From Saccostrea echinata (Eukaryota): 64,000 nt of DNA. The stretch covers positions 5,456,001 to 5,520,000 of the forward strand of contig NW_026889801.1 of assembly GCF_033153115.1 (NCBI RefSeq), read 5' to 3'. Numbering within the stretch: the stretch's first letter is position 1; each line of letters begins with the position of its first letter. Under the pieces are notes generated by a model, which saw only the letters and a list, made by a program, of their open reading frames with translations, was not told the origin of the DNA and searched no databases. Positions 13,218-63,384 of this stretch are shown here, piece by piece. The translations under genes and the position numbers were made by a program.

Positions 13218-14735
13218 ATGCAAATCTTGCAGTTTGTGTTTCATTATAGTCTTTCTATTGATTTGCTATGTCGGAATTAAGCTTATTGGTGAGTGACCAA
13301 TATCTATTTTATTTGTACCATAATATAATAAAAATTATACGATGAAATATGAAGATAACGAGCAGTATTCAAGCTCAACGTCCATTAAAACAATACAAAT
13401 TGGGAGAAGAGCAAACAGGGACCTCCAAAAACATCAGATGTGGGATTAGGTGCCATAGAGGAGTGAGCATTCTCTGCAGACCGGTCATACCCGCCATGTG
13501 CTCCTTGTCATGATCGGGAAATAACGGAAAAATCCGTCGACAACTTAGTGAATAAATAATAGCATAACAATTAGTATGAAAAACGTCAGTCAGCATATGA
13601 CTTAATGATAGATTGTATTTGCCGACAATGTCATTGTATCAACCATAGAACTTACGAAATGATGACTTTAAACGAGACTGGTGATATTCTTGTTTCATCA
13701 ACTTGTTTGTCAATAACTTACCTCGTTTTAGAAATTGTTCATACGAAGAGCATGTTCTTGCATATCGAATCAACTGAGAGACCCCATATGCAGGTGATAA
13801 GGGTGCGTACGTAAGGGAAGTTGACGATTGAAAAGTTACAGACATCACGCTTATCATAAAGCTTTGTTGTCAGATTACCATTAACGTCTTTTCTCTAGTA
13901 AAATATCCAAATATGTAACTGATATGCCAGCCTCTGGTATCGTTTATTTCAAGCTCACTGAGCTATATCGTGTCGACATATGAATGGAAATAACAATTGT
14001 TAATTCATAATACGTCGTCGATATATCTAAATGTCGAGTTGAAGACCACAGCAAGAGATTTCGTTTTCTCGTGTATAAGATTTTGAATTTGAATTTGAAA
14101 TTTTTATTTGAAGATTTTGAATTTTAAATGAACTATACTGTATAAAAATGCATTCCTTTTGGATTGTAAAAAAAAAACTTTCAGAGAAAAACATTTTTTT
14201 TTAAACTATTTCACATCAGAGAATAATTGTTGAAACAGGTATTAAGTTGAAAATATGCTGAGTTATAAATGTACTGTTCATATGTGCGAAGAAAATTTAA
14301 GAGAAATCATAAATGTAAGACTTCAAAATCGTAGTCTTCTTTTTTTACGGAATCGTACTTTGATTTTTCACTTGATTTATAGTATTTAAAAGAAAACTAA
14401 ATAATGCTGAATTCTTATTGTCCTTCTCCTGACCTCAATAATATAATTCCGGGTTTAATAAACCTTGAGTAAAGTAACATAAATGAAAACCGTTTGGGCA
14501 ATTCTAATATTAAGATTTTTTTCTGATACACAGTGAGATTAATATTTGAATCTTTTTGCAGAGTATTTTGAAGGCAAAATCTATGTTGCTTGTCTGAGTA
14601 ATTCCTCGAAGTCACATTCCACGAGTGAACCTGATGTCAATGTGAAGCCATCCCCCATTAATACAACTTTGAAAAATTTTCAAGATGATACTAGTATCCA
14701 GAATGACTATACAAGTTCAGATCTATTATCCACAT
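13218..14735 (+). pseudogene. Receptor-family copy B: broken partial duplicate of copy C (signal-like exon + stalk exon; no ectodomain, TM or tail exon)
   Basis: Signal-like exon ending ...VGIKLI-g|gtgagt at 13288, with ATG 13218 out of frame. Stalk exon 14562-14735 (EYFEGKIYVACLSNSSKSHSTSEPDVNVKPS...) is closely similar to 20811-20984, and intron 14150-14500 resembles 20440-20810. Confidence 0.7.
13341..14085 (-). mobile_element. Penelope-like retroelement fragment (RT C-terminal part + 3' end)
   Basis: Minus strand encodes AVVFNSTFRYIDDV and SPAYGVSQLIRYARTCSSYEQFLKRGKLLTNKL; the same 3' terminus occurs in other copies. Confidence 0.8.
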
Positions 14736-16099
14736 GTGCTTATATCTAAGAATACGTAAAGATATTTAAGAATCAAAATCAGTGAATACCAAGTATCCCG
14801 TGAAAATTGTGGAATGTGGCATAAAAATAAGTTAAAACTCATGTAAAATTCAAGGGTATGATATAAAAAAGAAACCAATTTTTTATCATTCCTAAGGAAA
14901 CCATGCATTTTTAGAGAACGTGTTTTGTACTTTAGCATAACACAAGAATTTATGATTAATTTAATACATTTTTATTACTTATTATTAAAATAATCTTTTC
15001 CCCCCTTTTTTTATTCATATAAATATACTCTATTTTAACAACTGTTAATCATTGATATTCTCTTTATCTTTTGAGAAATTTACAAGTATTTTAAGGTTAA
15101 TTTTGATCCAATAAACCGGCAAATCTGAAGCACTTCATTAACGAGGTTCACACTTAAGTTTTTGAGCAGGTTTTTTTCTTAACCTATATTTCAAAAATTC
15201 TGCATAATGTTTTAGTTCTTACAATAAATTTGGATTCTACAATACAAATTAAACTATATTCAGTTAAAACTCCATGATTAAATTCCACACCAAAAGCATG
15301 AAGTGAGGAACTATTTTTGTGGTGGAAGGTTTTTAGAAGAAAATGATAATATTTTTCCATGCAGCCTGTACACAGAGTTATTCTGTGCCATGAACTGTTT
15401 CATGCTGTTTCTATATTATATATTAAATAAACTATCTTGAATTCTATCATCATATTTGATAAATATAGCAAACATATTGTGAAAGTCCAGAAAATAATAG
15501 CCCTAATTTAAAGCTTAAAATTAGCACTATTTTAATAATATCTAAAAATTAACATCACAGACCCCCACTTTAAATTTTCTTTTCTGAATATATAAGATAC
15601 TTTTAACAATTTTTCCTAAATTCAGTAAAATGGCATTACTTTCAAATGATTTTATTGCTTGTTAAATTTTTAATGCCAGAAAAATGATATTTTTATAGGT
15701 GCAGAAAGGTCAAATAATTGATCATGCGAAATAATTTGAAATTTTTTTTGTTGTCACAAATTTTTTTATGTGTCTATTCAAGATGAGATAAGAATGTGTT
15801 TGTTCCCATAATTTATTTGAATAAAAATATTGGTGGAAAAACTTTGATAATTGATTTATGTGTAAGACGTATTTACAGTGCAAACAGGTCAAACAATGCT
15901 CTGCAGAACCAAAAGAAGCGCATTAACCCCGATTTTTTGTTTTGATTTTTAATCAAGCTGTGTGTGTAGATTCTTAAAATATACTTGATAAAAAAATTCT
16001 CATTACTTTTGATGACAGAAGAATCAAGAAAAAATCCATAGGCAACTTAAAGATATTAGTAAAAAAAGATTAATATCCATAATTTTCTGTACTTTTACT

Positions 16100-18515: not shown

Positions 18516-21500
18516 ATGGTTCACGCCATGTATTTAATCATACTTGTTTTATCGTTATGTAACTTTGGAAACACGCTTACTGGTAAGTGGTCATTAACAT
18601 TTCTTCACCTCAAAGGATACATCTTGTAACTATAACTGTTACAGCATTGATGCTAATTTTATATAACCCCTTGCTTGCAGATACATGTAGGAATGTTTCT
18701 TTTGCTTGCCAACGTAATGCTGGGTATCCTTATCCTATTGCTACCTTTGATGTTTAAAATAGGGTAAATGCTACATGAAGTTGCATTATTCTGTGGGAAA
18801 GTAATTTTTGCGGGGTGCAAACTTTGGCATATTTTTGCGTTTTTGAAGTAGCCCGTTCGAATTTTAATCGCTAAATCTGCACCCTTGCGTACAAGTTCTG
18901 AATGCAAGAAAAAAAATTTAATCAGTCTGTTGTTAAACAACATATGATTCATCTGGTATTTACTCAATATCTTGTTTAAATTGGTATTCAATAATTAAAT
19001 AAGGATGAATTTCCTCTTTTTTACAACATCTAATGACTTAGTGTTCGCCAAAATAAGTCCCGCCAAAATAATTGGCATACCTTTAAACAAGCAAAACGCC
19101 AAAATTTACACCAGCTAAAGAAACCCGCTGTACGGTATTTCAAATTAAAGGTTTGTAGTTTAAAGCAATAATTTTTTTTAAGACTATATATTTATATGTA
19201 TTTATATATATATACTCTAAATTATTGAACCAGTTTTATTTTTCCGTTGTCTGAATTAAATTTTTCACTAAAAATGCAGATTGATTTCCAGATGATAGTA
19301 TTAGATTAATTACATGTAATTAATCTAATTTCAGGCAATGAGTGAAGAATTGTGAAAATGACAAAGGCTTTAAAATTACTACTAACAACATAATTTTTTT
19401 ATAGGCTAATTTTTTTTTTTTTTTTAAATTTTTATTGCTAAATCAACCCAATTATAGCAGGTAATGGAATTTGTATGTTATGCACCATTAATCTCTTAAT
19501 GAATGGGGAATACCATAATTGTTATGTCCAACAAATGTTCAAGTGTAAAGATATTTATAAATTATTTTCATTATCAAGTATTTAATTCTCATAATAAATA
19601 AGGCATCAAAGGATTTTATGAATATAAATTATTAATAAGTTTTAAATCCTTACTCATGGTCACGGTAACATAGTTTTTTTTTCAAAAATAAATATCAACA
19701 TAGGATCGACCTATGTCTTTTTAAACCGTTTTGCATAACAATTTGCTCGAAATTTATGATTAACTGTTACTTATCCTCTCCTGACTCAATTTCATGGATA
19801 GTAATGCAGGAAATATAAGATAGAATATAGTCTAACATGTAAGATGAATAATCTATAAAGTAAAAAATAAACATCGAATGTTTATTTTTTATAAAAAAAA
19901 AAAATATGCAGGATTGTTTTAACTACAGATTATTTTCAGATCTCATATCTGTTTATGTTACAGATTGTAATAGCCAATCCGAGAATGGAAGCTTTGCCGT
20001 TGTAAATTATAAGGATGTCAATTTACAATGCAAATGTATCATAAAGACTCATTTTAATGGAATTTTAAAACTAACCTCTGGACCTCCTGATGTATGCAAT
20101 GTATGCTTTCCAGAAGTCAACTTATTTGATGTGAAAAATGGCAAAAAAGTGTTAAAACTGCCGTGTGCAATAAACAGATCTTCCGAAGAACTTCATGTTT
20201 CGATAAACAATATATTTGTTATGATACCTACAAATTTCAACTCTACGTCTAAAAGGGTTTGTCCCCAAGTAAGGATTTTTGAAGGTTCGTGAAATGTCAT
20301 CTTATGATTTGGACAATATTCCAATATTATAAATAAAATGTCTGTTTTGCAAAGTACTTCATGGTATTCAAGCATCTAAATCAAAACCAATATTGATAAG
20401 AGTACCTTCCTCATGTACTTAACTGTATATAGAAGGAGGTCTTTTAGATTGTAAAAAAAACTTTAAAACTTTTGTTTAATTATTTAACATCAGCGAATGG
20501 TTGTTAAAACAGGCATTAAAATGAAAATTAGCTGAGTTTTGTATGCCCTGTTTATATGCACGACCAAAATTTAAGAGAAATCATAAATAACACTTGAAAA
20601 TCGCAGTCTTCTCATTTATTTTACGGAATTTTTACTCTGATTTATCACTTGATTTACAGTACTTACATATGTAAAAGTAAATTAAATCATCCTGAATTCT
20701 TATTGTCCTTCTCCTGACCTCAATTATGTAATTGCTGCGTTTCAGGGTTCATAAAACGTTAAGTTCTATGAATGAAAAGCGCTACCACAATTCTAATATT
20801 TCTATTCCAGAGTATTTTAAAGGCAATATTTCTGTTGCTTGTATGAAAATCTCCTCGAGGTCAATGTCCACAAGCGAACCTGATGTCAATGTTAAACCAT
20901 CCTCAATTAAAACAACTTTGAAAACTGTTAGAGATGATACTAGTATCCAGAATGATTATACAAGTTCAGATCCGCTGTCCACAGGTGCGTATATCTAAAT
21001 ATACGTTAAGAAGAGTCCTAGGCTACTTATCTTACAAAATAAGTGTGTGCAAATGTAATTGTCATATTCAACCAAATTATAAGGACTGTTTAAATGCACA
21101 ATATTTTATTTTTCTTATTATGTCAAAAAATAATTTATATTTAATCGTTTCTTCTAAAGGATAACACAACAATCTTATGTAATTTGGTATATTTTCTCAA
21201 AAGAAATAGTTTGGAAAGCAACGTTTACGTTGTTAAAGGGAAGTTTTCCTCCAGGTCCATTTTAATAACAATTGCAGGCGATGTCCATATTAAGCTATAT
21301 TCCAAAGATATGACCAGAAATGCTGTTACAGATCATACAAATATACAAAATGATCCCATAAAAACAGAACCAAGTGCTAAAATTTCCTCCGGTACCTCTC
21401 CCTCGAAAGCTGTTGAAAATGATACCACTGACCTCAATGACTACCAAAGTCAGGATGCATTTTCTACATGTGCGTATATGACATATTACGATTAATAATT

Positions 21501-21969
21501 TATCTTGACATAACCAGGTTAATTTTTCTCACAATGTAATTCAGGTAAGGGTAATTGTTAATGTTATGATTAATTTTTTATTAAATAATTCACAAATGAT
21601 CGCTACAAGTAGATATGAACTTGAAAAGGTATTGAATGTCGCTTTAAAATAGGATTAAAACTGCAGCTTTAAATTATTAAATTGAGAGCTTATAAATCTT
21701 ACATTTCATTTTTTTCTTTTAACTTTTGTCTTTCAATACTGCATATTGAAATTTCTTTCAAAAATATTATTTATACAAAATACACTTTACCTCTTATTGA
21801 TTATAAAATTCTAAAAAGAAAAAAAATAGAAATATATTATGAGCATTCATTTTGTATCATGTTATAGTTTATTTTCTTTTATTTTATAGACATTTTATAT
21901 GGAATCTCTGGAGCTGCTGCTTTAATAATCTTAGGCATAATTTTTGTAGTTATTTGGTGTTTCAGGTAT

Positions 21970-22013
<44 letters not shown>

Positions 22014-25000
22014 TAGATCAGTGAATATAACATTGAATATAAAGAAAAGGTTAAATATCAACAATTTTTGAGTGGTGAATGAATTGCTGAATCAATTGTT
22101 CATATAGTATGAATACAAGGTTGGTATTTTGTGTAGACATGTTGTTCGGACGAGATTGTTTAAACCAATGTCCCTATCGCAGTAGATGCTGTCACGATAA
22201 CACTACTCAAAGGCCGTAAGTGCCGAGTACGTACAGGTCTAAATTTGCAGCCCTCTAATGGCACGTGGTGGCGTCTCAATATGAGTGAATAATCCTCGAA
22301 GAGACTTTAAACAACAAACAAGCAAAGAAACAGTTATGAAGTTCTAAGTCAGTTAAATTCATAAGATATTCCAGATAGAGTCTTCCAGTTTAACTCAACC
22401 ATGTATTTGATATTCATCAAGGAAAAGTCCCCGGTTCTTCTGATTCTTTTTTTACTTGTGGCTACACAACTGTCTTAAATACTGGAAATATGTTAGAAAA
22501 TGTCAAACAATTTTTTAAAGGGGGATATTACACAACATAAAAGTCATTATTAGTCAATATTTCCATTTCTATTTGTTTTCTCTGTTATAACTCTTTGAAA
22601 GTTAGGAGAGTTGATTTCTTGATCATTCTAACGGAATGCAAATTTTGCCAAGCGAAAGGTCAGTAGTTAAGAAGGCATAATATGCATGTAATTCTCGTGC
22701 GGCTGTCTTTGTGTCTGACTCTAAGGAGGCCAATTATGCATGTAATTCTCGTGCGGCTGTCTTTGTGGTTGAGGTCAGTGGGCGGGGACTATTGAAATTG
22801 ACATGTGAGGCCCCGTGTAATTTAAATCTATTAGTCTACATTTTTAAAATCTAAATTTACAATTTTATTTTAAAATGAAATGGAAATATAAGGAATCACT
22901 GTCTAGTTAGTAGAGTATGCCAGGGACATCAACGATAGTTGGAAACGTGGGATAATTATGCATAACGGGCATCGCCCGTTATGCAAATTATCCCACGTTT
23001 CCAACTATCGGTGATGCCCTGGCATACTCTACTAACTAGACAGTGATTCCTTAATAAATTTTGGTTTTGGTTGATTATGTTATATTTTTTATGTGAAGAC
23101 TTGGAATATGCATACTGAAATTAATTTTTAATATCACTTTGTTTTCATCTTGATCCCACTTCTTTATGAGTATATTTCACTAGCATAAAAACTATAACGA
23201 CCCCGCTGGAAATTCCTTTCAAGTGCTATCCTTGGTATGCGAACACATATTATGCACCTAGTATTAATGTTTTTCTAAAACCAATTCCAATAAACTTTGA
23301 TTATCATCATTTTTTAAAGGTGGGGGGTGCCAAATATCATACTCTTTAATCAAAGTCCAGAATTTATTAGAAATGTTAAATAGAAATGTATACCAAGTAC
23401 CGGTAATTATCTATATACGAGGGTTGTCCCAGAAAAATGCTAACATTTGCAATATTTTTTGATTCACTGTTATTATAAAGTTAAATATGGTATTCACGCT
23501 AAACAACATTTTGTACATAATTCACAGAAATTTCAAAAAAAAATATCTCTATAAATAATATTTTTATCTTTGAACAACAAATCATTCAAAATAGCTGTCG
23601 GCGCAACACCGACGACATCAAAACGTAGCTCGTGGAGTTTTTGAATTTGTGTTGGAAACGTGCATCTTTAAAATGTTGATTTTCTTTTAGTTATCGAGCT
23701 ATCCATTTCACACATGCTACAGTTAAGAGTAAATCAATGAATTAATTCTTTTAAAAGACAATTTCCCAATCATAAACTAACTGCTCACATAGTGAACGGC
23801 GGTCTCCACGTATGACGCCAAGCTCAAGACTTTTCAGTTGTCATTTTTGTAGGTCTACTAAACGCTTCTTCTATCGGATAACTAGTCCATCATGCATCTT
23901 TGAACCTCATTTTTGTTGGTCTACTAAACGCTGCTTCTATCGGATAACTAGTCCATCATGCATCTTTGAACCTCTTTTACAAAGTATAAACAGTCGCCCG
24001 CGTGGGGCAGTGGTTAGAGCGTACGCTCTAGAGTCGCGGAGTAAGGAGTTGATCCTTACGTCGCGGATTCGAATCCCACTTTGGGACGTGGAGACCAGTC
24101 CTTCGGATGAGACCGTATAAACCGAGGTCCCGTGTCGCAGTAGGTGCTGGCACGAAAAAGATCCCTCACTGCTCAATAGCCTTGGGTGCCGAGCATAGGT
24201 CAAAATTTGCAGCTCTCCACCGGCAAGTGGTGGCGTCTCCATATGAGTGAAAAATTATCGTTAAACAATAAACAAACAAGCAAACAAAAACAATGTATAA
24301 ACCGGTGTTCGATACATGTATTTTGTGTCGTTCCTTGGTTCCAAGCTCTTTTCCCGTATGAACAGGGGTCATACAACGCTCCACGCAGTACTAAGTGATA
24401 ATTTGGTGCGCCGCATTATCGTTTGACGACGCCGTTTGTGCATATAACATCGTATTTTCTCTTAAATAAGGTTAGAGTATTGATTTTTTTTACACAAGAG
24501 TACCCTTGATAATACAGTTCCTATGGATGTAATTTTGGTCACATTATATTAACGTATACCTTGAAAATAAAGAAAACATCGCTGTCAGTGCAATTGTTGA
24601 AGGTCAAGAAATAGCCATGCGCCGAACACCGATATCTAACACTTTTTAAATGTTGTTTCTGATTGCATTTGAAATTACAACCTTATATAATTTTGCCAAA
24701 ATGACGAAAATATCATTTCCCAACATTGTGCCAAAAATGAATAATTTTCGTCAGGTAGTTTATGAAATATTTAAAAATTTCGCTTTTTTTCTGGGAAAAC
24801 CCTCGTATCTATTAATATAATGACAAATATCTTATCAATCCCTTTGTGTGTTATTTTATGAGTAGTCAGGAAATCAATAAAATATAACGTAGCTTTCCTT
24901 AAAAGGAATTCAAGACTTTGAATTAAGATATTTTATGTACATTATAATTTCTTTCTTATCTGTTCAGAGGCAGACAATCAGTATCAAACAACAATTCTGG

Positions 25001-25106
25001 TCGGCGGAAGAATGGCGCTTTTGATGGCGGACTTCCGGACAATCCTCTGTATCATTCCTACGAGCCACTGGAACATTCTGAGAGAAAGATATCAGGAGAG
25101 CAATAA
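18516..25106 (+). CDS. Receptor-family copy C: ~330-aa type I membrane protein with duplicated stalk exon and NPxY tail
   Basis: Exons: 18516-18582 (MVHAMYLIILVLSLCNFGNTLT signal), 19940-20284 (Cys domain), 20811-20984 and 21278-21469 (stalk), 21890-21965 (YILYGISGAAALIILGIIFVVIWCFR), 24968-25106 (…LPDNPLYHSYEPL…GEQ*). Total 993 nt, in frame, all AG/GT. Confidence 0.82.
21971..22008 (+). repeat. (CT)n microsatellite immediately after the TM exon donor of copy C
   Basis: Direct reading. Confidence 0.95.
22145..22325 (+). mobile_element. 5'-truncated decayed SINE (same family as 2197-2497)
   Basis: ggccgtaagtgccgag...aaatttgcagc...atatgagtgaa...aaacaacaaac. Confidence 0.75.
22889..23053. repeat. 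Near-perfect 165-bp palindrome in an intron of copy C
   Basis: taaggaatcactgtctagttagtagagtatgccaggg...gggc-atc-gccc...ccctggcatactctactaactagacagtgattcctta. Confidence 0.95.
23418..24805. mobile_element. Non-autonomous mariner-type element in a copy C intron, carrying a SINE
   Basis: ta|cgagggttgtcccagaaaaa ... tttttctgggaaaaccctcg|ta; related copy at 46818. Confidence 0.85.
23993..24289 (+). mobile_element. tRNA-derived SINE inserted in the mariner element
   Basis: Near-identical to 2197-2497; flanking caa(a/t)gtataaac duplication; the empty site is visible in the paralogous element near 47370. Confidence 0.9.
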
Positions 25107-25467
25107 AAAGATACCCAGTGTTCTACAGAAAAATATAATGAAGCTAGAGAGGCTGAAAACAATTCAATCTATGATAAAGCAAACAAAATTCAAGCGTAGG
25201 AGGCAAACACAAGTACTGACTTCATTTTTTGCAACACAGATCAGTTTCCTACTCTGACTTAATTTTCATATGTTAAACTCGTGTCTACGGGGATTGGAAA
25301 TCTTAATTATGGTTCTTCTATATAGTCGTATGAAGACAGAATTTCCAAAAAAGTGGCAATCCTGGCGGCGGAGAAAAGCATAATGAACAACTAATATCTT
25401 CATCCCATTGATGACTTTAGCATTCTGTTATATGCGTCAATGCATCGTCTCTCACACTTGAATAAGT

Positions 25468-25503
<36 letters not shown>

Positions 25504-27175
25504 GGTTTCAATATGTTGTTTTGAAAGTAGCTAGGGTTTGGACTTTATTTTGCCCTAAAATATCGATGTTTGTAAAGTTTTGAAATTTGCCTTAATATGA
25601 GTTGAATATATGAATGAGATAAATCATAAAGAATCATTGCATAAAGATGACCGTACTGAAAATAGGAAATCTGTAATCTGTTACATTTTAAGTTTTAAAC
25701 AGTCATATCTTCAAAATGACCCATTTCAGGGTTTATTATCCTCAAGAAAATAGTGTCTACATCCACCGTCGCCCACTTCAATATTCGGTATGTTGTGTAA
25801 AAATTCATGAAAAGTCACATATGTGATATATTTTGTCTGAAAATATATTTCACTGAAAATTGATGTCTTCTACAACTTGTTCAGAAATTACAGAAACATG
25901 CACAAGTTCAGGACGTCACAATTACATGTAGCATTTCGTCGGTCATACATTGTTGAGATAAACGATTCGTATCATCTTTCTGCACGGAAGTTGAAAATTC
26001 AGAAAGCAAAGGTTTTTATTTTTCACAACTATTTTATATTTTAGAAAATTGAAACCCTACCTTCTTCTTATCCTGTCTAATATTAAAACTGATACAAACT
26101 TTAGACTGCCAAATTTCATGTGGAACTATAAATAGTTTGCTACCAAACGACATTTTTCCGGGCACATTCATCATGCTTGTGAAATATTTCTGATAAGTTT
26201 TAGTCAATTGATAAAATGTTATGTTTGAGTTTCTAAAGGCAAGTAAGGTCTACAGTATGTGCTACATGCTTTCTTTTATGGAAAAAAACAACGTTGGCAA
26301 TTTAGCTTAAATCGACCAATTTCTAAATGTGAACTGATAATATAGGGAAATTCCTACAGAAAGCAGAAGCACTTAGAGATTCACATCTGTAAACTAAGGA
26401 TTTTTTTTTAAATATTTGGCTGGAAATATTGTACACAAGTAATGTTAAAAGTTAAAAAGTTAAAACAAGTGTATGTAAATATTTCATGTATGTACATTTT
26501 GTTTTTTATAATTATGAGTATGTAATCTGATAAGCCATACATGGCTTAAGGAATAAACAAACAAACAAACTAACTAACTAATATAACTAAGTCACTAGAC
26601 ATGCGCTGAAGATTTGACTAATACACAGTGATCAACACCTACAGATCTATCACGTTTTCTTTTACCTTAAATGATTGATACTTGGAAAAACATCATTTTT
26701 TTTATTTCATGAGATTTTTAATTGTTTTATTCCTTAAAAATATCAATATAATTCTTAGAAAGAAAGTTTGGTACAAAGAAATATTGGACTGTGTGCTTCA
26801 GAAGGAATATATGCCTCTATATAGCTACAAGCTACTGTAAAATTATTCTTAAATATTTGAAAATTCCATCCAAGCAAAATTAAAATTGTGACATAAGATT
26901 GCTTCAGTTTATTATCTATGAAAATGAGCACTAGTATAAAATATAAACCCTTAACAATGCTAAGAGCGTCAACGTACATTTTCAAAGAAAGATAAAGAAA
27001 AGTTTTAGAAAATGCTATATTTCCAAACTGATTCAAAGGATTTTGAATGTTGAAGTCACTAACAAAGATTCTTCTAAATTGATATTATTTGTTCATGAAA
27101 TTAAGCAAGAGAGCATGTATTACATACTGGATCGTGATTATATGTACAAATTTATTTGTACTTTTATAATTATTT

Positions 27176-40595: not shown

Positions 40596-41385
40596 AGGTG
40601 CTTTGACACAGATTTGAAGTTTATATTTTCTCAAATTTACTGTATAATTTCACAACTTACATGTTGCTATAGCATTTCACACGAAAATAAAATTAAAAAC
40701 TTATTTAACCTGGAAATTATTGAAACTACGAATTTCGGGAGGCGTTTGATTAACACATCCTTGCACTTTCACAATTTTTAACTCTATCCTTAATACTTAA
40801 GAAAAGTAGCAATTCTATTGTGTATTAATGAATAATATTACATCTATAATCCAGAAAATTCAGAGTAAAAATGTGCGAAAGCAAAACCCACTCACTTGAG
40901 CATTGTCAGCCCGTGCTCAATGTTGTGTAGTTGTGTACAGAGTTTAACAAATTGAATACACCCGTGAAACGTAAACTGTTTTTGTAAACAGGGCACGAGC
41001 TCTGTTGTTGTTAATGTTTACGTTTCACCGGGTGTGTTCAATTGTTAAACTCTGCACACACCACTGAGCACGGACTGACAATACTGGTGAGAGGATTTTG
41101 ATGTCTACATTTCTACTCTGGAATTTCTGCATTATAGTTTTAATATTTTTCATTAATAAACAACAAAATTGCTACTTTTCTAAAGTACTAAGGATAAAGT
41201 TAAAATTTGTGAAAGTGCAAGGATGTGTCTATCAAACGCGTCCAGAAATTCAAAGTTTCAATAACTTCCAGATAAAATAAGATTTTTATCAAATTTTTGT
41301 ATGAAATGCTATAGCAACATACAAGTCATGAAATTATACAGAAAATTTGAGTAAATATTAACTTCAAATCTGTGTCTAAGCACCT
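40596..41385. mobile_element. ~790-bp foldback (whole-length inverted repeat) element with TTAA TSD
   Basis: ttaa|aggtgctttgacacagatttgaagtt ... aacttcaaatctgtgtctaagcacct|ttaa; arms pair inward to ~40990. Confidence 0.88.
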
Positions 41386-42253
41386 TTAAATAAAAAAGAA
41401 TAAAGTGCACACATCCGAGGAAATACTCATATATTGATTCTTTATGATCTTTATTCCAATGCCTACAGCACTGAGTTACTTAAACAAGAGACATTTATGT
41501 TTCTGCCTAAATTGTGGTTTTAGGTAAAATTTCTTTTCATCGAAATTTATTTATTCATTTATTTTTGGAATAAGTTCTGTTTTATTTTTCATATATATAC
41601 GGCATTAATTATCGATTGACTAAAGTGCACATAAAAGTAAAGTTTTTGCCATTGTATATATGCATTTAATGTGAGTTGTTATTTAAATGTTTTCACTGTT
41701 TTCTTTCGTCAATAAATCTTGGATCCACGCCTTGGCTTATGCATTCAATATGCCATGTTTTGTGTATTTTGATCCCTGCGCGCTGACCATCGTTTTACGC
41801 AATAGCCTAGATACAATGTTTATGTGTATAAACCGTTAATGAAGACCCACCACCACCCAAGTGATCCTACCTCTATTACTCTTAATGAACACTGGTTTAG
41901 TTTTACTTTAAGATGGACCATTTTGTTTAATAATAATAAGACAGACCTTGGTCAATTTTGTTTACATCTCTATATTTAGAAATTGTGTCATCGTCAGTTC
42001 CTTTGCCAGACCACCAGCTTATCAATGGCAGCTTACACTAGGACTTCACTTCCGGTGATTCAAACTTAATGTGTCATCTCCCGAGGGAGATGACAAAAAG
42101 ACCTGAAGATTTTTTTTTTTAAACCTTGTTTCCGAATCCTATTTGATCTTTACTTAATGTCTGCTATTTATGCTTGTGATTTTCAAATAAAATATGTTTT
42201 AAACTAAGCGATTACTTTTCTATAGGAAAATATAATATAATAAATATATAAAT

Positions 42254-43466: not shown

Positions 43467-46400
43467 ATGTCTACTTCTGGGATTTATATTTTATTTATTT
43501 TACTTTTATCTGACAATGGAGAACTACTTACTGGTAAGTCATTCATATGGAATTTCAGATACATTAGTTACTAATTCTCTCTCATTATAAGTGTACCTTT
43601 CAAGTATTTTTTTCTTCAAGGGCCGGATATTGTAAGAGTCATTATTTGATCTTTTTTTTAAAGTTTAGTTACGTAAGATCATTTAAAACAATTCTGCTTA
43701 AATATTTCATTGTAGACTATTTAGGAACATGTCAGTATAAACGCACCTTGATTCATTTACACATAGATTATTTGTTAGTTTATTTATATAACATGTGTAT
43801 TTTAAAAGTTAATCTAAGAGCTCAAAGTTTTAAAATTTTCATTAAAGTCGTCTTTCTCATGCAGGAGTTTTGCTTAATATTTTCACCTTGATGAGCCTTA
43901 AAAAAAACTTGAATCTCATTTACACATGATGTCGTGATAAAACATCTGTTTCAAACTTCCCCTTTACTTCTAATATTAAATGACGAGTTTTTATTCTATC
44001 ACATTACATTTCTTTTGTTAATGCTACATTCGGGTTATACGAGTGCGTATGAATTTAGAAAATTTACTTTAGGGCGTATTTTTATCATTTGTTATGTATA
44101 TTGGTTACATTTGTAATTGATGAATATATACTTTATATATTTCTTTCATTTACAGCTACTAAAAACGTCGATATAACAACGTGTGATGGTAGTACAAAGT
44201 ATGGCTCCGTGATTATAGTAAAATATAGTAAAATAAAATCTCACTGTGAGTGTCAGATAAAACCTCATTTTGTTGGGGTTTTAAAATTTGCTTCTAATGT
44301 GATTTCGTTTTCCTGTAACACGGAGATAAACATTTTTGAAAATGACAAGCCGGATGAAGTGTTAAGACTTGCGTGTGGTCCAAGGACTTCTGGCGGATTC
44401 AATGTAACCAATGAAAGTGTCCTTTTTATGACATCTAAATACGTCAATTCGTCAGCTGGAACTTTTGAACAAGAGGTTACAATATTTGAGAGTATGTAAA
44501 AGTTGATAAACATACAAAAATACAAAATGATGTTTGCATTTGCTTTGAAAGAAAATGTAGGTGAAAGTATATTTATAAATATCTCTGTGGTATGTATTTG
44601 AAATTGATTTTAGAAGTCATTCATTATTCATCATTATAAAAATAGAAAAAGGAGAATTGTTCGATTAATTGCATATTGTTTAACACCGATTCGGCAATTA
44701 TCCAGCCATATTTCGGCGGTAAAAACGACCATTAAATATATATTACTAAAGATGATCTATATCACAGTAGATAGTTCTGGGTTCATTTCTTGTGAGAAAT
44801 TCTGCCTTTAAATTGCGTATGAGTATAATATTACTTTTTTGCTTATAATACAAATCCTATTCTTAATTATATACCAATGGCCTCAGAATAGCATGTGTAG
44901 AATTTTAGTACTGCAATTCCTTTCTTGTATTCAAATTCCAGACATTCCAGACATATGATACATACTAGCACTGCATATTTTGATCACAAAGAGGCTAAAA
45001 GAAAAAAGTATAAATAAACTTACACAGCAAACAGCAATGAAATAAGTCATCCTAATAAACAAAATGGGGCTAGTAAAAAAAATGCGAATTTAGAGAATAT
45101 CTGTATTAAAGCATATATTTTCTTTACTGTATTTTCTTAGGAAATTGATCAAACTTTATAAAAACAAAGTATGTTTTGTCTTGTTGAAGTTCCACGGGAA
45201 AAATTATGAAAAAATACTTTCAGAAAAAAGTTTCAATGGCACAATTTCTGTCACTTGTGGAGATAATTTCTCAACTTCAATGACAACAACAAAATGGACC
45301 ACAAATACTGATGGTACAAAAAACAGAATAACTACCAACACCGATGTCTCCTTAAAAACAGAAGGAGGGGACCTCCAAAGCAAAGATAAGACAAACTACA
45401 CAGTAAAATGTAAGTATATTGTACATGTTTTTTAACATATTGATAAAATTTGTTTTCCTAAATATTTTCCTCTAAAATTGTGAAGAAAAAAGAAGTTATC
45501 AAGATATTATTAAGAACATGAAAACTGCAATTTATGGAAATTCGTGAGGAATTACTTTTCAAAGATAAATAATTATTGTTTTTCAACGTAGTTTCAATTA
45601 ACGATAGTTGTTTCCATTCATATGTCGACACGATATATCCAAATGAGCTTCAAATTAGAGATATCACAGAGTCTGACACCTCTGTTTCGTATGGATATTT
45701 TACTAGAAAAAGACCTTAAAGATGACCTTACAACAAAGCTTTATATTAAACGTGATGATCGTCATCTTCCCTTACTTATGCAGCAATATACCCTTACCAC
45801 TTGCATATAGGGTTTATATCTCTAAGTTGATTCGATACGCAAGAGCATGCTCGACGTATGAACAATTTCAAAACCGAGGTAAGTTATTGACAAACAAGTT
45901 GATGAAACAAGAATATCAACAGTCTCGTTTAAAGTCATCATTTCGTAAGTTCTATGGTCGATACAATGACCTTATCAGCAAATAAAATCTTACCTTAAAT
46001 CGAATGCTGACTGACGTTTTTCATACAAATTGTTAGGCCATTATGTACACACTGAATTGTCGACGGATATTTCCATCATTTCCCTATCATAAGAAGAAGC
46101 ACACGGCGGGTGTGACCTGTCGACAGGGGATGTTCACTCTGCTCCTAATTTGTATTGTTTGAATGGACTTTTGAGCTTGAATATAATTTGTTATCTCCAT
46201 TTATTTCATTTCAGATATTATATTTGGTGTTGCTGGAACTGCTGTGATTTTATTAGCAGGCATTTTTTCATTAGCTGTTTGTCATTTCAGGTTCTATTTC
46301 ATTATTTTTCTTTCACATTTAATTTAAATTGTTGACTTCTTACCCAAATATATTTCACGTTGGCAAATTATTAATTTATAACTCTGTACATTTGTTAAAA

Positions 46401-46727
46401 TAATTAACTTTTAACATATTTTACTTGAGATATTCTACACATTTAAACGATTTATCTTCCTCTAGACGGAAACAATCAGTCCTGAGCACAACATATCTGA
46501 AAGATGAAATCAACTCTGAACAGAAAAATGTAGACATTTTTAAGGAACTCCCAGACAATCCTCTTTATCACTCATATCAGCCTGAAGACGTGGAAAATCA
46601 GACTTATGCTCAACCCAATAAGAACAAAGAAAAGACCCAAATAAAAGAAGTCCGCAAATCTGTTACGCAAGCAAAATCTGCTAATGAAGATGATTGTGAT
46701 ATTGTTTATGCCAAAGTGAATAAATAA
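43467..46727 (+). CDS. Receptor-family copy D: ~308-aa type I membrane protein with NPxY and terminal ITIM
   Basis: Exons: 43467-43533 (MSTSGIYILFILLLSDNGELLT), 44156-44491 (Cys domain), 45224-45409 (Thr-rich stalk), 46215-46290 (YIIFGVAGTAVILLAGIFSLAVCHFR), 46466-46727 (…ELPDNPLYHSY…TYAQP…DIVYAKVNK*). Total 927 nt, in frame, all AG/GT. Confidence 0.85.
45580..46213 (+). mobile_element. Penelope-like retroelement fragment in the stalk-TM intron of copy D
   Basis: FPYLCSNIPLPLAYRVYISKLIRYARACSTYEQFQNRGKLLTNKLMKQEY; 3' terminus abuts the acceptor at 46214. Confidence 0.8.
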
Positions 46728-53000: not shown

Positions 53001-53639
53001 GTATGTATGTTTATTTAGGTTTAGGCGAAATGTTCATTTTATTTAAAGTCTTTTATATATTTGATATGCAAATCGGTATACATGTAAACGTAAATGTAAA
53101 TGCCTGGTAAATAAATTTTGAAATAATTCTTAAATTTCTATACAAAGTTCGAAACTTAAACCTAAACTTAGAAACTAGTTAAAATTAAAAAAAAGATATT
53201 TACAAATCAAATAATCTTTCACTATTTCATAAAAAAAATTGAATATACTTGCAATAGTGCCCACAACATACTCTACGTGGATGTGTTCGAAGGGTACAGA
53301 TACTTATGTATGAGTGGTTAAAAACTAAACATGAGACAAGTTTGCTGGAACACTCTCCTTGTTATAAATTACGAGGTTTACGTGTGAAGTATTTTATGAA
53401 AAGACCTACGTGACAAAGTTCAGTTTATATCAAGAAGGATGTGTAAAACACCGGAACCTAGGATAGATATTGATTATGAAAAGGAATTTTGGTTGATGAG
53501 GTACATGTACAGAACGCCTGGCGATATTCTGTTTTATTTATGTTAGCTTGTGTTTAAAACGCAATATTTTACTTTTTTCTTTCATTTCTTTCAGTAACCA
53601 CCAATGCAGTGATGTAACCAAACAATTACAGGTTTAAAT

Positions 53640-55170
53640 ATGGCACAGGATGTTCTTAGATGTGAATTATGCCTAAACATTGAATTCAAATTGGAAGCGG
53701 ACGCTTTTTGTAACACATGTAATGTGAATCTGTGTAAAACCTGCGTTGGTCATCATATCATATCGATACCTTCCTTGAAGCATAATGTGATGACTCTTTC
53801 AAGTCGAAAATGTGGTTTTAAAATCCCTGTTTGTCCTCATCATTCAAAGCAAAATTGTGAGCTCTACTGTCCAAATTGTGTTTCTCCAGTCTCTGTTGAA
53901 TGCATTGCATCTGGGTCACATAAATTTCACGATATTGAGGAAATTAACAAGGTATATAAATCAAAAAGACTAAATGCAGAGAAAGACAAATTTGAATTAG
54001 AGAATTGTATATTACCAGAGTTTGATTCAATAATTGCTGAAATTGAATACCTTGATCAAGGACTTAGAGAACAGCATAAAAATCTAAAAGAGGCAATCAC
54101 ACAATGTGGGAAAACAGCACATGACGTTCTGGATAAAGTGAAAGAGAAATATTTAGCAGATGCAGACAATCTTGAAGCAGAGGATATTAAATCGGTAAGA
54201 ATACTTAGTCGTATTTTTCATCATTTGAAACTGAACGTAGAGTCAGAATTGAAAGTTCTGCAAAAGGTTATGTTGGAAAGAGATTTTAGCAAATTGGAGA
54301 GCTACTCATCAAAGGTTGAGGAACTAAGAATAGTACCAGCTCGTTTTCAATTATCAGTTCCTGCTTTTCAAATGTCCATGCTTTCCGAAGATAAACTTTT
54401 TCAAGAAATTGGAAGTCTACCATTATCTCTTAAAACTCTTTTTCCAACGGAGACAATTAAATGTCATCATAGCCTTAAAGTGTTTGAAAAAAAATTTCAA
54501 AAAGATTTTGCAAAATTCCAAAGCTACTAACCGTTTTTGATACAGGTTTCAAACACACACTAAGAGTAAGTTGTTCCAGAACACTAGACCAATTTTATGT
54601 CAGTGGGGATGCAGAATTTATCAGGCTTATAACTTTTAAAGGTGATGTTTTGGAAAAACTCGCGACAAAGTCTTGCAACAACAGATATAACGGTAACCAA
54701 AGATAATGCTTTGGTTTACGCTGATGGTAGAGATCGCAGCATAAATATTGTTAAAGATAAAAAAAAAAGTTGAATGTATCATAAAAAGATTGGAAGCCAT
54801 GGTCAGTTACCAGTACATCAACTAATGAACTTCTGGTTTCGATGTGGACCGAAAGTTTCAAAGATAGTAAAGTTGTTCGTTTTTCAGATTCTCTAGCAAT
54901 TCAGGAGATTCAATATCGAGAAGATGGACAACCTTTATATCATTACCCTGCTTTTGTGGAAGAAAACGTCAATTTGGAGGTGATAGTGTCTGACATAAAT
55001 GAAAATCAGACAAACTGGGAAAGCTAAAGTTTGTATACGACGGAAAGTTTAAATCCCAAAGGTACCCAGAATTTCATCCCTTTGGTTTAGCTACTGATAG
55101 TATCGGTAACATTCTCATTGCAGACAGTGAAAAGTTGTATATTCTTTATAAATACAAGGAAAATATATAA
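53640..55170 (+). pseudogene. TRIM-like B-box1/B-box2/coiled-coil/NHL gene; 296-aa intact ORF followed by a frameshifted NHL region
   Basis: CELC...FCNTCNVNLCKTCVGHH and CPHH...CELYCPNC...C...H..H B-boxes plus a coiled coil (53640-54530). NHL-like segments (DITVTKDNALVYAD, WKPWSV, IQYREDGQPLY, FHPFGLATDSIGNILIAD) continue in shifting frames to ~55170. Acceptor at 53594. Confidence 0.8.
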
Positions 55171-56650: not shown

Positions 56651-58606
56651 TTATGTAAAATATAATTTTGTTTCGCCATATTTTTCGGCTATTTGACGAT
56701 TGATATCCACTGAAGAATCTCGGTAGATTAGTTTGAGCGCACTTCCTTCACCTTTTAGTATAAATTGTTCATTTCCTATTTCATCAATGAAAGATTGCAA
56801 AGCTTCTTTATTTTCGTCCGCAAAGTCATTGAAAGCATAAAAATAACACAATTCGATGACAGAGTTAAATATTCCCTTGTCTCTTTCAACAGAATTATTA
56901 CTTTCTATCTCATTTTCAATTGTTCTTATATCATTTTCATCAAATTTATGTGGCATGTTCAGATACTCTGTTGCTTTGTCAACGTCTTTCAACAGTTTCT
57001 TGTAATCCCCATTTTCTGATCCAAAGGGACACAATTTTGACAAGACGTTATGTGGAACGAAGAAACTCGATAAGTTTTTCTTGTGCAAACATTCCTTCAA
57101 AATAATCCAGGCCTCAAACAAGCGAACAGATAAATTATCTTTTGTCCAGCACACATCTTCATAATACCAAGCCATCAAATAGAATACAATAGTCTTCAAC
57201 CAGTAGGAAGGAATAGCTGGTTCCATTCTGAAGAGAATGTCATTATACCGCTTTGGTATATATTTTTGGTCAAAGAATTTTAGCGAACGCAAAATTGTTT
57301 TCCTACCATCCATTTCAGGAAAGCTCGCCCATATTTCTTTTTCTAGAAGTGCTCTTGTCCATCTGGCCTCGCCATCAGACCTTAGTAACAAGTAAATTTT
57401 CTCTTCGCTTCGGTTGTTTTTTCGCTTGCCTTTGGTGCTAATACCTGGTCGAGATTTGTCTAAAATGTCTTGATTGAAATCAATATTTGTTTCGAATTCC
57501 GAGGGTTTTAAGCAAATACAAATATCTAGGTCCACAATTAAATGCCTGTAAATTTGCCCTTTCCAAAGCAGTTTGTTTGTTTGCGCTAAGGTTGACGTTA
57601 ATGCTGGAACAGTGTCCAACCACTTCCAACCAGGTAATACATTCTTTTTCATAGTATTTGCTAGTTCTATCTGAATTTCATTCCACACTCGTCGCATAAA
57701 TGTTTTGTCGTCTCTTCCTTCTGCTAAATCTTCTGAAAGATCTTTAAAATCTTGAAACACTTCTCGGTTTTTCACACGGACGTCTCTGTTTTCATGCTTT
57801 AAGGAATACATGCCTTCTGTATAAAACTCTAAAGACTGATTAAAACATGGGAGATCTATCATGAAATCAAACTCGTCTGGGTCACCAAATTTTGTTCCTT
57901 CAACCATGCTTCCCATTTCGATGATGGAATAATTTTTGAAAACAAGATGGTGGTTTGCCATATCTTTACAAACATTTTCCAAAATTATTCTCACGTCTGT
58001 GCGAATTTTTTCATATTCAGGGGACATTTCCCTTCGAAATGCTTCTTCGGCTTCTTTCAACACAAAATTAATCAACTCAAAATTTACATTTTGATTTTCG
58101 ACATTTAATTCTGGAATGTATGTTTCCCGAAAATTATGTCTTTCGTGGGGATCAAATGTTTCATCAAATTCACTCAAAAAAACATCGGGATTTAATTTTG
58201 GTTGCAAAGGAGATTTATCCCACGGAAGAAAAGGCCATTTGGGTCTAGAAAGAGATGGGTTTCCATCTGGCTTGATTATACTGAATGTTGGATTAAGTCC
58301 TTTTGCAATTCTCCTGATGCCTTCTCTTCTTTTTTCTATGTATTCATTAGAATGCACTGCTAAGATAGGTTCAAAAATATTATTTCCGGCTATCGGCATT
58401 GGACTGAAAGGCAGAAAAGGTTGTTTCGAAAGTACACTGCTCATGTTAGTTAAGATTGTTTCGCATCCACTGCTTCTATTCAAAAGACAATTTTGGGATG
58501 CATCATTACTTCCTTTACTGGACAATAATGTACCATCGACATCAAAAGATGTTTGTCTGTTGACACATAATTTTAGCTCATCTTCGGGTGGAGGAGTCTC
58601 TCTCAT
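56651..58606 (-). CDS. Mab-21/cGAS-like nucleotidyltransferase (cGLR), 651 aa
   Basis: GSMVEGTKFGDPDEFDF (GS + D/E-x-D catalytic motif), IVDL third acidic strand, Mab-21 C-lobe motifs ILRSLKF, PSYWLKT, SSFFVPH; uninterrupted ORF with an acceptor just upstream (exon starts 58636). Confidence 0.92.
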   Translation of the reverse strand: MRETPPPEDELKLCVNRQTSFDVDGTLLSSKGSNDASQNCLLNRSSGCETILTNMSSVLSKQPFLPFSPMPIAGNNIFEPILAVHSNEYIEKRREGIRRIAKGLNPTFSIIKPDGNPSLSRPKWPFLPWDKSPLQPKLNPDVFLSEFDETFDPHERHNFRETYIPELNVENQNVNFELINFVLKEAEEAFRREMSPEYEKIRTDVRIILENVCKDMANHHLVFKNYSIIEMGSMVEGTKFGDPDEFDFMIDLPCFNQSLEFYTEGMYSLKHENRDVRVKNREVFQDFKDLSEDLAEGRDDKTFMRRVWNEIQIELANTMKKNVLPGWKWLDTVPALTSTLAQTNKLLWKGQIYRHLIVDLDICICLKPSEFETNIDFNQDILDKSRPGISTKGKRKNNRSEEKIYLLLRSDGEARWTRALLEKEIWASFPEMDGRKTILRSLKFFDQKYIPKRYNDILFRMEPAIPSYWLKTIVFYLMAWYYEDVCWTKDNLSVRLFEAWIILKECLHKKNLSSFFVPHNVLSKLCPFGSENGDYKKLLKDVDKATEYLNMPHKFDENDIRTIENEIESNNSVERDKGIFNSVIELCYFYAFNDFADENKEALQSFIDEIGNEQFILKGEGSALKLIYRDSSVDINRQIAEKYGETKLYFT

Positions 58607-58720
58607 ATAAACGACTGTTTCCTTGGAAATTCGGTTCTAAAATGAGACAAAATACATTTTCAATTCGGAAACAATTAACTTACTCCTATAACCAGTGGTG
58701 TGAATCAATAGGTACCGTAT

Positions 58721-60990: not shown

Positions 60991-62816
60991 TGAACAAGAA
61001 TCAGATTAGGAGAATGAGATTGAACCTTCCAAACACAAAGCAAACACCCTGCCACACGGCTACCATGACCGGTAGGAACGTAGCATGGACATACAAGACA
61101 TTACACTTCCTGATAATTTTTCTGTTATTTTTGATTTTTGCAATGGCCTTGGCCATAGAAACCGGGGTCGGGGGGGGGGGGGGGGGTTGGGGCAATGATT
61201 GTACCTATGTATAGTATACTATTAAATAAATACGTCGTATAAAGTATTCTATAGAAAAACAGCTACTTTATGCTTGTGCTCTCTCAATAATAATATCTAA
61301 TAACCCTTTTTATACTTGTCAAGTTTTTGTCCACTGTATACCCCTTACTAAAATGGTTGCCTCATCCCACATCTGAAATTGCTTCCAACGGGTCTGATTG
61401 TTGTCTAGAAGTTCTAAAGAAGAAGCCCCTTTTTATAGATTTTTCTTTTGTATTTTTGTTTTTCTACAGTTTACACTGATTTCCTTTTGGGATTCTTTAT
61501 CTACCCCGAGGTTCACGATTTGAACCAACTTAAATCTACACTACATGAAGACGCTTTAATGTAAATATAACAATTTGAAGCTCTGTTGTTTAAAAGATCT
61601 TTTATTCAGAATTCCCTTTTCATTGTAAAGCATTAATTCCTATTTACTGCCCGAGAGCACATGCATTCAACATGCTTAAATATTAATAATATAAGGAACC
61701 ATTTACAAGACACATTTACTTGATACTATAGCGATTATGGAGAGAACGATCTTTAAATGACTCTACATTATTTTCACTAATTCGTAATTATCTCATCTTG
61801 AAATGGTGAATGGAAATTCATTCAAAAGAGTTGAAATCATCTAAATGCATCAGATGACTGACAAGTCCTTAAATAGAAGGAACTGAATACTTGAATGCAT
61901 CATAATTTTGCTCGGCATATATTTTTGGAAATGACTGAGTTATTTATCCGTTGATAAAATTTCAGAACATTTTTATCTAGATCTGGTTTGTCCAGTAATC
62001 CTGTTGTTAATCATATCATCAATGATATCTGATTTCTCACGTTTTAATCAAAAGCAATTTTTTCTGAAATATAAAGTAGTCAATAAAAAACAAATATATA
62101 TTATAATTAATATAAAAGCCTGAGTGTTTTAAAATCAATTAAACATATTACCAGGATTTAAGACTAAATATCTTATTAATAAGAAAAACGGCATGACTTT
62201 ATCCATGTATAGTTTAAACAGGTACGTACTTTCAATAAGCACATAATATCTTTCTATGTCTAGTTTTGAAGTATTCAAGCTAAAACGAAATTGGGAGTGT
62301 ATAGCAATTTGAAAGTTAAACTTGATATGTCGACACAATAAATACAGGTATTAAGACAAGAGTCAGTGAAGCATGCATCGATAATTAAAGTTTATAAAGA
62401 CAACTTTAAATGGACACAGCCTCTAAATATGCAAGTTACAGGTAGATATGTAAATAGTTTTAAATTCCAGCCGTCTTAATTTTGAGCACAAGAGCAATAT
62501 ATTGTAATTACTATTCTGATATCTCCAACGCTGAGAAAACCTTCAATCAGGACAACCGCGTGACAGACGCACTAGGGTAAGAAAAATAAAATAAGAAAGA
62601 AAAAAAAGAATAAAATAAGAAAAAAAAGTAAACCGTAGCATTATGTTCAAATCCCATACGCGCATCATTTAAAAGTTAGCAAATCTATCAAATTTTCAAT
62701 TCTGTTTGTAGCGTTGGAGTGATAACAAGTTGTTTTACGCCTTTTTTCTTTGGTAAAACAGAAAGATTCATATGTGCATTTTTCTTGTTTACAAAGATAC
62801 AACTACCACATGTAAA

Positions 62817-63384
62817 ATGGCAACAGCATCAGATCTATACTCTGGAGCACAGTATGTTAAACGATGTCAACTTTGCCCTGGAAAAATTAGAAAATCTATA
62901 GCAGAAACGGTGTGTAATACATCTCAAGTCAGTCTCTGTAAAGACTGTGTAGGTCAACATATGATCTTCGATCCAAATGTAAGACATGTTGTTGTTACCT
63001 TTGAGTTCAAAAAATCTGAAATCACTCCACCACAGTGTAGTGTTCACTGAGAAGAAATGTTTGAATTGTTCTGTGAACAATGTGACTCTCTGCTTTGTTT
63101 GAAAAGCCTTGCATCTGGATCACATGAAAATCACACTGTCTCACAAATATCTAAAATTTACAGCTCTAAAAAAAACTCCCATAAGAAAAGACCCAGATGA
63201 ACTAGAAGCTGACATTGCACCTGTGTATGAATCAATTCTGTCTGGAATCGAAGCAATGCCATGGGGTATCGTCCAAAAACATGATGAAAGACGAAAATCT
63301 ATGAATGACCTTAGTAAAACATGTCACAAAATTGTAAACAAGGTCTTTGAAAAATATCAGAGATATGTCCAAGACACGATGTAG
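62817..63384 (+). pseudogene. Second TRIM-like B-box gene, disrupted
   Basis: MATASDLYSGAQYVKRCQLC...LCKDCVGQH; in-frame TGA at 63048 inside B-box2 (continues EEMFELFCEQCD...SGSHENH); frameshift at the A-run near 63170; truncated by a repeat at ~63385. Confidence 0.8.

Follow-up and report, generated by a model that had tools for sequence, protein, structure and literature searches.

The described systems closest to the locus analysed here are vertebrate paired receptors and two tandem receptor families of invertebrates. In KIR2DS2 a relic ITIM follows a stop codon that was introduced into the tail, and activating paired receptors of the KIR2DS/LILRA type have a positively charged residue in the transmembrane (TM) helix (both as given in excerpts of PMC3533184). 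The oyster gene studied here, copy C, resembles the KIR2DS genes of these excerpts in being a tandem-family receptor with a distal Tyr motif readable behind a nonsense codon, and the KIR2DS/LILRA type in its short tail (45 aa) that lacks the distal Tyr motif. It differs from KIR2DS, as described there, in having neither an Ig domain nor a Lys/Arg in the TM helix, in a relic that is YxxP rather than ITIM, in the retention of NPxY and in the absence of a near-identical long-tailed or inhibitory partner. The relic behind the stop thus resembles that of KIR2DS2, but copy C falls outside the paired receptors as these excerpts define them. The Hydractinia Alr genes, in the portions consulted of bioRxiv 10.1101/2022.03.04.482883, are likewise tandem type I receptors with diverse Tyr tails, pseudogenes and frameshift-truncated tails; unlike Alr, with its Ig/Fn3 ectodomains and ITAMs, the oyster family has one six-cysteine β-sandwich and NPxY/YxxP/YxxV tails. 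The Biomphalaria GRC, PTC2 and LG5R clusters (PMC7494358, PMC13712769; main texts, in part) also consist of molluscan single-pass TM genes with divergent alleles and large haplotype indels. The likeness is one of organization only and not of homology, and the resistance link described for the snail has no known counterpart here; the terms tyrosine and intracellular are absent from the main text of PMC7494358, and cytoplasmic and ITIM from that of PMC13712769. Oyster proteins of the same family include C. gigas LOC105331197, C. virginica LOC111103182 and, in S. cucullata, XP_062588891 and XP_062581604, which match the ectodomain profile and have PDNPLYHS tails, with no annotated function and no clear copy C orthologue among them. 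No published description of the oyster receptor family was found in the open-access literature searched.

The window is the whole 64 000-nucleotide stretch of Saccostrea echinata DNA that was analysed (C52:5456001-5520000), and the genome searched comprises 923 Mb in 425 contigs. Public proteins labelled Saccostrea echinata (P0004, P0018, P0128, P0133 and P0139) match loci of this genome with identical tails. Over this part of C52, contigs C39 and C99 (the latter reversed) run collinearly, most blocks being ~90–97% identical, and from this collinearity we take them to be the alternative haplotype. Copy C is a six-exon gene for a 330-aa type I membrane protein, with canonical splice sites and open on both haplotypes. 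It is laid out as a leader, a six-cysteine domain, two Ser/Thr stalk exons, a TM helix and the 45-aa tail, as follows.

18516..18582, + strand: exon 1, ATG and signal-peptide-like leader; GT donor, frame joins exon 2, other haplotype identical
19940..20284, + strand: exon 2, predicted six-cysteine all-β ectodomain (jelly-roll/CUB-like; AF2); alleles 81% identical
20811..20984, + strand: exon 3, Ser/Thr-rich stalk; AG/GT ends, open on both haplotypes
21278..21469, + strand: exon 4, Ser/Thr-rich stalk; AG/GT ends, open on both haplotypes
21890..21965, + strand: exon 5, TM helix without internal charged residue; contig X1-7 has this 3' end as its loose end
24968..25106, + strand: exon 6 coding part, 45-aa cytoplasmic tail to TAA; one difference in 135 nt between haplotypes
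25041..25052, + strand: NPLY (NPxY) motif, kept; invariant in all five aligned subfamily tails
25102..25107, + strand: AATAAA hexamer including the mutated base; background 1.9 per kb, contigs continue to 25436 and 25250
25104..25106, + strand: nonsense TAA, ancestral CAA (Gln); CAA opposite in P1 and P3, TAA in both genomic copies and in X1-7
25107..25196, + strand: vestigial 30 codons, now likely 3' UTR; paralogue alignment and haplotype damage
25170-25172, + strand: relic Tyr codon within N-S-I-Y-D-K-A (ancestral type NPIYAKP, from comparison of family motifs)
25197..25199, + strand: ancestral stop TAG, opposite the own stop of the intact paralogue P1

The TM exon contains no internal Lys or Arg on either haplotype. 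The copy C gene is intact and spliced, and its product belongs to a tandem family of oyster type I membrane receptors that are uncharacterised.

The stop described in the earlier note is present: the + strand reads ...ISGEQ* at 25104-25106 and continues in frame with KDTQCSTEKYNEAREAENNSIYDKANKIQA to a TAG at 25197-25199. Behind it, the 30 codons of open frame are also as described, with the qualification that openness is weak evidence on its own. In the six frames of the window, 1069 of 8167 stop-to-stop segments (13%) span at least 30 codons; such a length is not unusual and the case therefore rests on homology. When eight tail exons of the subfamily are aligned, the TAA lies opposite CAA in P1 and P3, and the TAG of the remnant lies opposite the stop of P1, whose tail terminates EENPIYAKPLKIKD on both haplotypes. 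The remnant aligns with this intact P1 tail (C52 ~5369.9k; shuffle p = 0.005, 20 000 shuffles), so that homology downstream of the stop is borne out among the paralogues. The earlier proposal that one nonsense change shortened the tail, with loss of the distal Tyr motif and retention of NPLY, agrees with the alignment, which indicates that a single C>T change (CAA>TAA) clipped the tail of copy C. No orthologue of copy C was found in other species by word-based and profile protein searches (weak evidence of absence), and the stop is therefore undated. The AATAAA at the stop was also considered as a new poly(A) site and is not supported, as the hexamer is frequent and the contigs do not end there.

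Both genomic copies, on contigs that are 95% identical here, carry TAA at 25104-25106. Four read runs (X1–X4), presumed to be RNA, were also searched. Contig X1-7 (511 nt, depth 3.3) spans 24963-25436 with no substitutions and includes the TAA; the TM exon forms its loose 5' end and is thus joined to exon 6, which marks the contig as a spliced transcript. It is identical to the window haplotype and possibly comes from the assembled animal itself. Contig X2-16, from another study, has no listed change at the stop, with weak support at a depth of 2.6, 20 letters 5' of the stop (against a bridging rule of 31) and one of its five differences unlisted. X3 and X4 gave no contig over the stop and are uninformative. 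The evidence on the stop comes from two assembled haplotypes and two samples. The suggestion of a sequencing or assembly error can be practically dismissed, as the TAA stands on two contigs of 95% identity as well as in the spliced contig. That the TAA is still segregating, with intact alleles elsewhere in the species, would suit a highly polymorphic locus from which few haplotypes were sampled; we nevertheless regard it as improbable, since both assembled haplotypes, which are divergent, carry the TAA and each shows separate damage behind it. Sharing of the stop together with separate damage indicates that the stop predates the split of the haplotypes.

This damage differs between the copies. 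On C39, 45 nt past the stop, a 1-nt deletion shifts the frame in which SIYAKP was read. The window haplotype remains open up to the TAG, but its motif reads SIYDKA (A>D and P>A). X2-16 has AAA>TAA at 25131, a second in-frame stop that may be an error at depth 2.6, and its change at 25179 gives the ancestral Pro. Between the two haplotypes, the 135 nt that precede the stop contain 1 difference and the 90 nt that follow it contain 4 (Fisher p = 0.085, not significant); with X2 pooled the latter becomes 6 of 90 (p = 0.017), the third haplotype being counted mainly after the stop. Divergence behind the stop resembles that of the flanking non-coding DNA (3–12% between haplotypes). We conclude that the remnant is a decaying relic and likely untranslated 3' UTR. 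Programmed readthrough, giving a long and a short isoform, would draw on the openness of the window haplotype up to the ancestral TAG. Against it, the extension is not conserved across alleles as in a readthrough gene: it is frameshifted on C39, its motif is mutated on the haplotype that is open, and X2 adds the low-depth second stop. The stop context is UAA followed by A; in mammalian cells readthrough is lowest at UAA (0.015–0.228%), and A/U at position +4 is tighter than C/G (PMC5829715, in excerpt). No stable structure or hairpin was found downstream of the stop (folding z = −0.7). Because the remnant is damaged, the UAA-A context tight and a stable hairpin lacking behind it, programmed readthrough is unlikely, and as an account of this locus we hold it to be very unlikely; the functional readthrough raised in the earlier note is not supported.

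The severed motif had been labelled an ITIM. The consensus [I/L/V/S]xYxx[I/V/L], as stated in the consulted part of the Alr preprint (bioRxiv 10.1101/2022.03.04.482883), is matched by none of the three versions (NSIYDKA in the window, NSIYAKP on the alternative haplotype and NPIYAKP in P1). Scored against motif classes built from other family members (ten YxxP-class and 13 terminal-class motifs), SIYDKA gives 19.1 for the YxxP class versus 12.8 for the terminal YxxV class, SIYAKP of the other haplotype 32.1 versus 16.8 and PIYAKP of P1 26.5 versus 10.2. An example of the YxxP class is NAIYAQPNKV in C. gigas P0143. The ITIM label is accordingly withdrawn for the relic; the IVYAKV of copy D does match the consensus. 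The earlier pairing of SIYDKANK with IVYAKVNK of copy D stands in so far as the alignment exists (copy C versus copy D, tblastn E = 3e-7; remnant alone, p = 0.03), but it pairs the wrong motifs, the relic being of the YxxP class. From these scores, the severed motif appears to be the middle NPIYAKP/YAQP (YxxP) motif of the family and not an ITIM. The subfamily of copy C would have been without a terminal ITIM-like motif before the stop arose; the direction of this loss is suggested by the presence of the terminal motif in Crassostrea and in the D and E types.

Further members of the family in the window are the following.

44158..46727, + strand: paralogue D; ectodomain 44158-44490, TM ~46216-46291, tail ~46467-46727
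423..3546, + strand: paralogue A; ectodomain ~423-758, TM ~3050-3128, short tail NSPY...HIYIPL
14555..14750, + strand: orphan stalk exon copy, 84% identical to exon 3 of copy C

No ectodomain exon was found near the orphan stalk exon (window 9–16 kb). The tail of copy D contains NPLY, YAQP and the ITIM-matching IVYAKV, and the order in Crassostrea and copy D is NPLY ... YAQP ... YAQV/YAKV. E-type paralogues (C52 ~5393.6k and ~5379.5k; C99 ~98.9k; L046:1542-1901, L041) have long multi-tyrosine tails with NPLY, YSxV, YAKP, YAIP/YAIL and YAQV. Three subfamily genes have an ectodomain: P1 is intact, copy C has the nonsense codon and P2 (C52 ~5405.6k) lost the YxxP motif through frameshifting deletions on both haplotypes. 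The shifted P2 tail occurs in contigs of three of the four runs (X1, X2 and X4), and S. cucullata XP_062588891, a protein with four NPLY repeats, has the same out-of-frame end. P3 (C52 ~5436.5k, L031:7200-7800) consists of stalk, TM and tail exons, its TM exon having a stop on C52 but none on C99, the copy for which there is a 151-aa public model; no intact ectodomain exon was found in the 16.5 kb searched around it. The frameshifted P3 was dropped as a third independent motif loss, as it is without an intact ectodomain exon and has the TM-exon stop on C52. In the ectodomain tree, copy C, P1, P2 and P0002 group with moderate support (93/78), the order among them being unresolved.

The copy C ectodomain is modelled by AF2 (pLDDT 81) as an all-β sandwich of ten strands. 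None of three ectodomains matched a Pfam family, CUB included, at E ≤ 1. In the structure atlas it scores 0.92 to a cluster with 31% CUB, which has weak recognition value. VIA gives Z = 6.5–7.2 to CUB-containing chains and a best Z of 8.4 to a collagen-binding domain (r.m.s.d. 2.9, 99 aligned), all VIA scores lying within the common range, and Foldseek returns generic jelly-roll matches with TM ≤ 0.5. The model thus suggests a generic jelly-roll, with CUB a weak lead. Two genome searches gave at least 16 and at least 26 matches to related exons (alleles counted), mostly in C52 4.79–5.50 Mb. The ectodomain profile matches 94 proteins at E ≤ 0.001, and those named among the ten clusters inspected are uncharacterised oyster proteins. 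A word-based protein search with the copy C ectodomain gave 34 candidates, none at E ≤ 0.001; profile searches recovered the family, with neither copy C nor an orthologue of it among the matches.

The ectodomain alleles are 81% identical in copy C, 74% in D and 76% in P1 (divergence of 19–26%), and 96–100% identical in four other genes of the cluster. The copy C ectodomain has a dN/dS of 1.08, with no excess over 1 (p = 1.0). Positive selection was rejected for the ectodomain, none of seven allele pairs being significantly above a dN/dS of 1, and the divergence may fit either diversifying or relaxed selection. Exon 3 of copy C has a dN/dS of 0.07 (p = 0.011; four synonymous changes versus one replacement), the tail before the stop is identical at 44 of 45 residues between haplotypes and the TM helix is also conserved. 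These values suggest that purifying selection persists upstream of the stop.

The same values bear on whether copy C is an expressed gene heading for pseudogenisation, with the stop as an early lesion. The low contig depth (3.3, a poor measure of expression), the ectodomain dN/dS of about 1 and the nearby relics (P3 and the orphan stalk exon) would be in line with this. Decay of the gene is nevertheless quite unlikely, as, on two haplotypes whose introns diverge by ~4–12%, each of the six exons stays open between canonical splice sites, exon 1 is identical in both, exon 3 shows its excess of synonymous changes and the tail before the stop has a single change in 135 nt.

Alternatively, truncation may have been favoured as a functional switch by which, within a paired-receptor-like system, a signalling receptor became a decoy or an endocytic partner. 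Two of the three ectodomain-bearing subfamily genes lost the YxxP motif through different lesions, that of P2 is also found in another species (S. cucullata), and the tail before the stop, stalk exon 3 and the TM helix are conserved while the ectodomain alleles differ at 19% of residues; KIR2DS2 is a precedent (PMC3533184, in excerpt). However, copy C has no charged TM residue, the lost motif is not an ITIM and the ectodomain dN/dS is not above 1. A close intact-tailed partner is also lacking: the nearest paralogue ectodomains, from searches that give a lower bound, are 41–45% identical to that of copy C (P1 41–43%) and are without an ITIM. We consider a selected switch possible but doubtful, and take tolerated loss as the default over selected loss.

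The reading that we prefer, and in which we have good confidence, is a fixed, tolerated truncation of the copy C tail, which ends after 45 cytoplasmic residues with NPxY kept. The last exon would have gained CAA>TAA, common to both haplotypes; translation would stop at 25106, and the 30 codons behind would decay as 3' UTR. Stop codons in a last exon spare the mRNA from exon-junction-dependent decay, and because the stop of copy C sits in its last exon the mRNA probably escapes this decay. NPxY is a site for PTB adaptors or clathrin endocytosis, and YxxP is a site for SH2 domains of the Crk/Abl/Nck type. The protein would retain the NPxY and lose one YxxP SH2 site, and with the one kept and the other lost ligand binding and uptake by the receptor may continue, at the cost of one phosphotyrosine output. 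Erosion of the tail would have been stepwise: the terminal motif of NPLY-YAQP-YAQV was lost in the C subfamily, and copy C and P2 may then each have lost the YxxP motif via different lesions. The ectodomain dN/dS of 1.08 is also compatible with relaxed selection on the whole copy C gene.

Elsewhere in the cluster, the D ectodomain exon (44158-44490) matches that of A2 (C52 ~5423k; L030:4238-4570) at 309 of 333 nt (93%) but its own C39 allele (L013:2920-3252) at just 85%, and S. cucullata P0136 has 83% aa identity to D and 64% to the D allele. The tail of D is ITIM-matching and that of A2 is short without an ITIM match, which makes them a paired-receptor-like pair; this pair does show the feature of similar ectodomains on different tails. 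The resemblance may come from either gene conversion or trans-species polymorphism. The public model P0133 joins an A2-type ectodomain to the stalk, TM helix and tail of copy D (45220-46727), ~78 kb apart on C52, and could be a mis-annotation, a real chimeric allele or a long-range splice. At window position ~10100 the alternative haplotype has a tandem array of 2.67-kb units (99% identical) that is absent from the window, and contigs C99 and C39 both terminate in this array at ~10.1 kb. Adjoining the cluster, a 661-codon frame (56651-58636, − strand) with a Mab-21_C domain (E = 6.8e-9) is a candidate cGAS/Mab-21-like nucleotidyltransferase, and B-box zinc-finger (TRIM-like) frames lie at 53613-54530 and 62757-63384 (+ strand), the second apparently broken. 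SINE-like repeats of ~300 bp, degraded element copies of ~700 bp and long inverted repeats are dispersed in the window.

2196-2499, 22131-22332, 23992-24286, 37031-37236: dispersed/inverted repeats
13308-14058, 27151-27902, 45586-46139; 40590-41391; 22889-23053: dispersed/inverted repeats

A broader reading, which we put forward as a tentative and on balance unlikely one, joins two proposals: that this is an undescribed oyster paired-receptor-like cluster in which gene conversion exchanges hypervariable CUB-like ectodomains among the genes, and that selection repeatedly favoured the loss of YxxV and then of YxxP, while NPxY was kept or multiplied. If true, the cluster would hold inhibitory, reduced-signalling and decoy/endocytic receptor versions, convergent with KIR/Siglec and without ITAM adaptors.

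Taken by itself, the stop is a last-exon truncation of an ordinary kind, apparently fixed and of a sort to be expected in fast-evolving receptor families; it serves as a clean marker of tail change in this oyster receptor cluster, which is uncharacterised and highly polymorphic. The cluster holds more interest than the stop, three of its genes having ectodomain alleles that diverge by 19–26% and near-identical ectodomains being joined to different tails. Should the cluster prove to be immune, it would be a bivalve counterpart to the snail resistance clusters, of relevance to oyster disease-resistance breeding, and would offer natural tail variants on related ectodomains (D ITIM-matching, P1 YxxP, copy C and P2 NPxY only).
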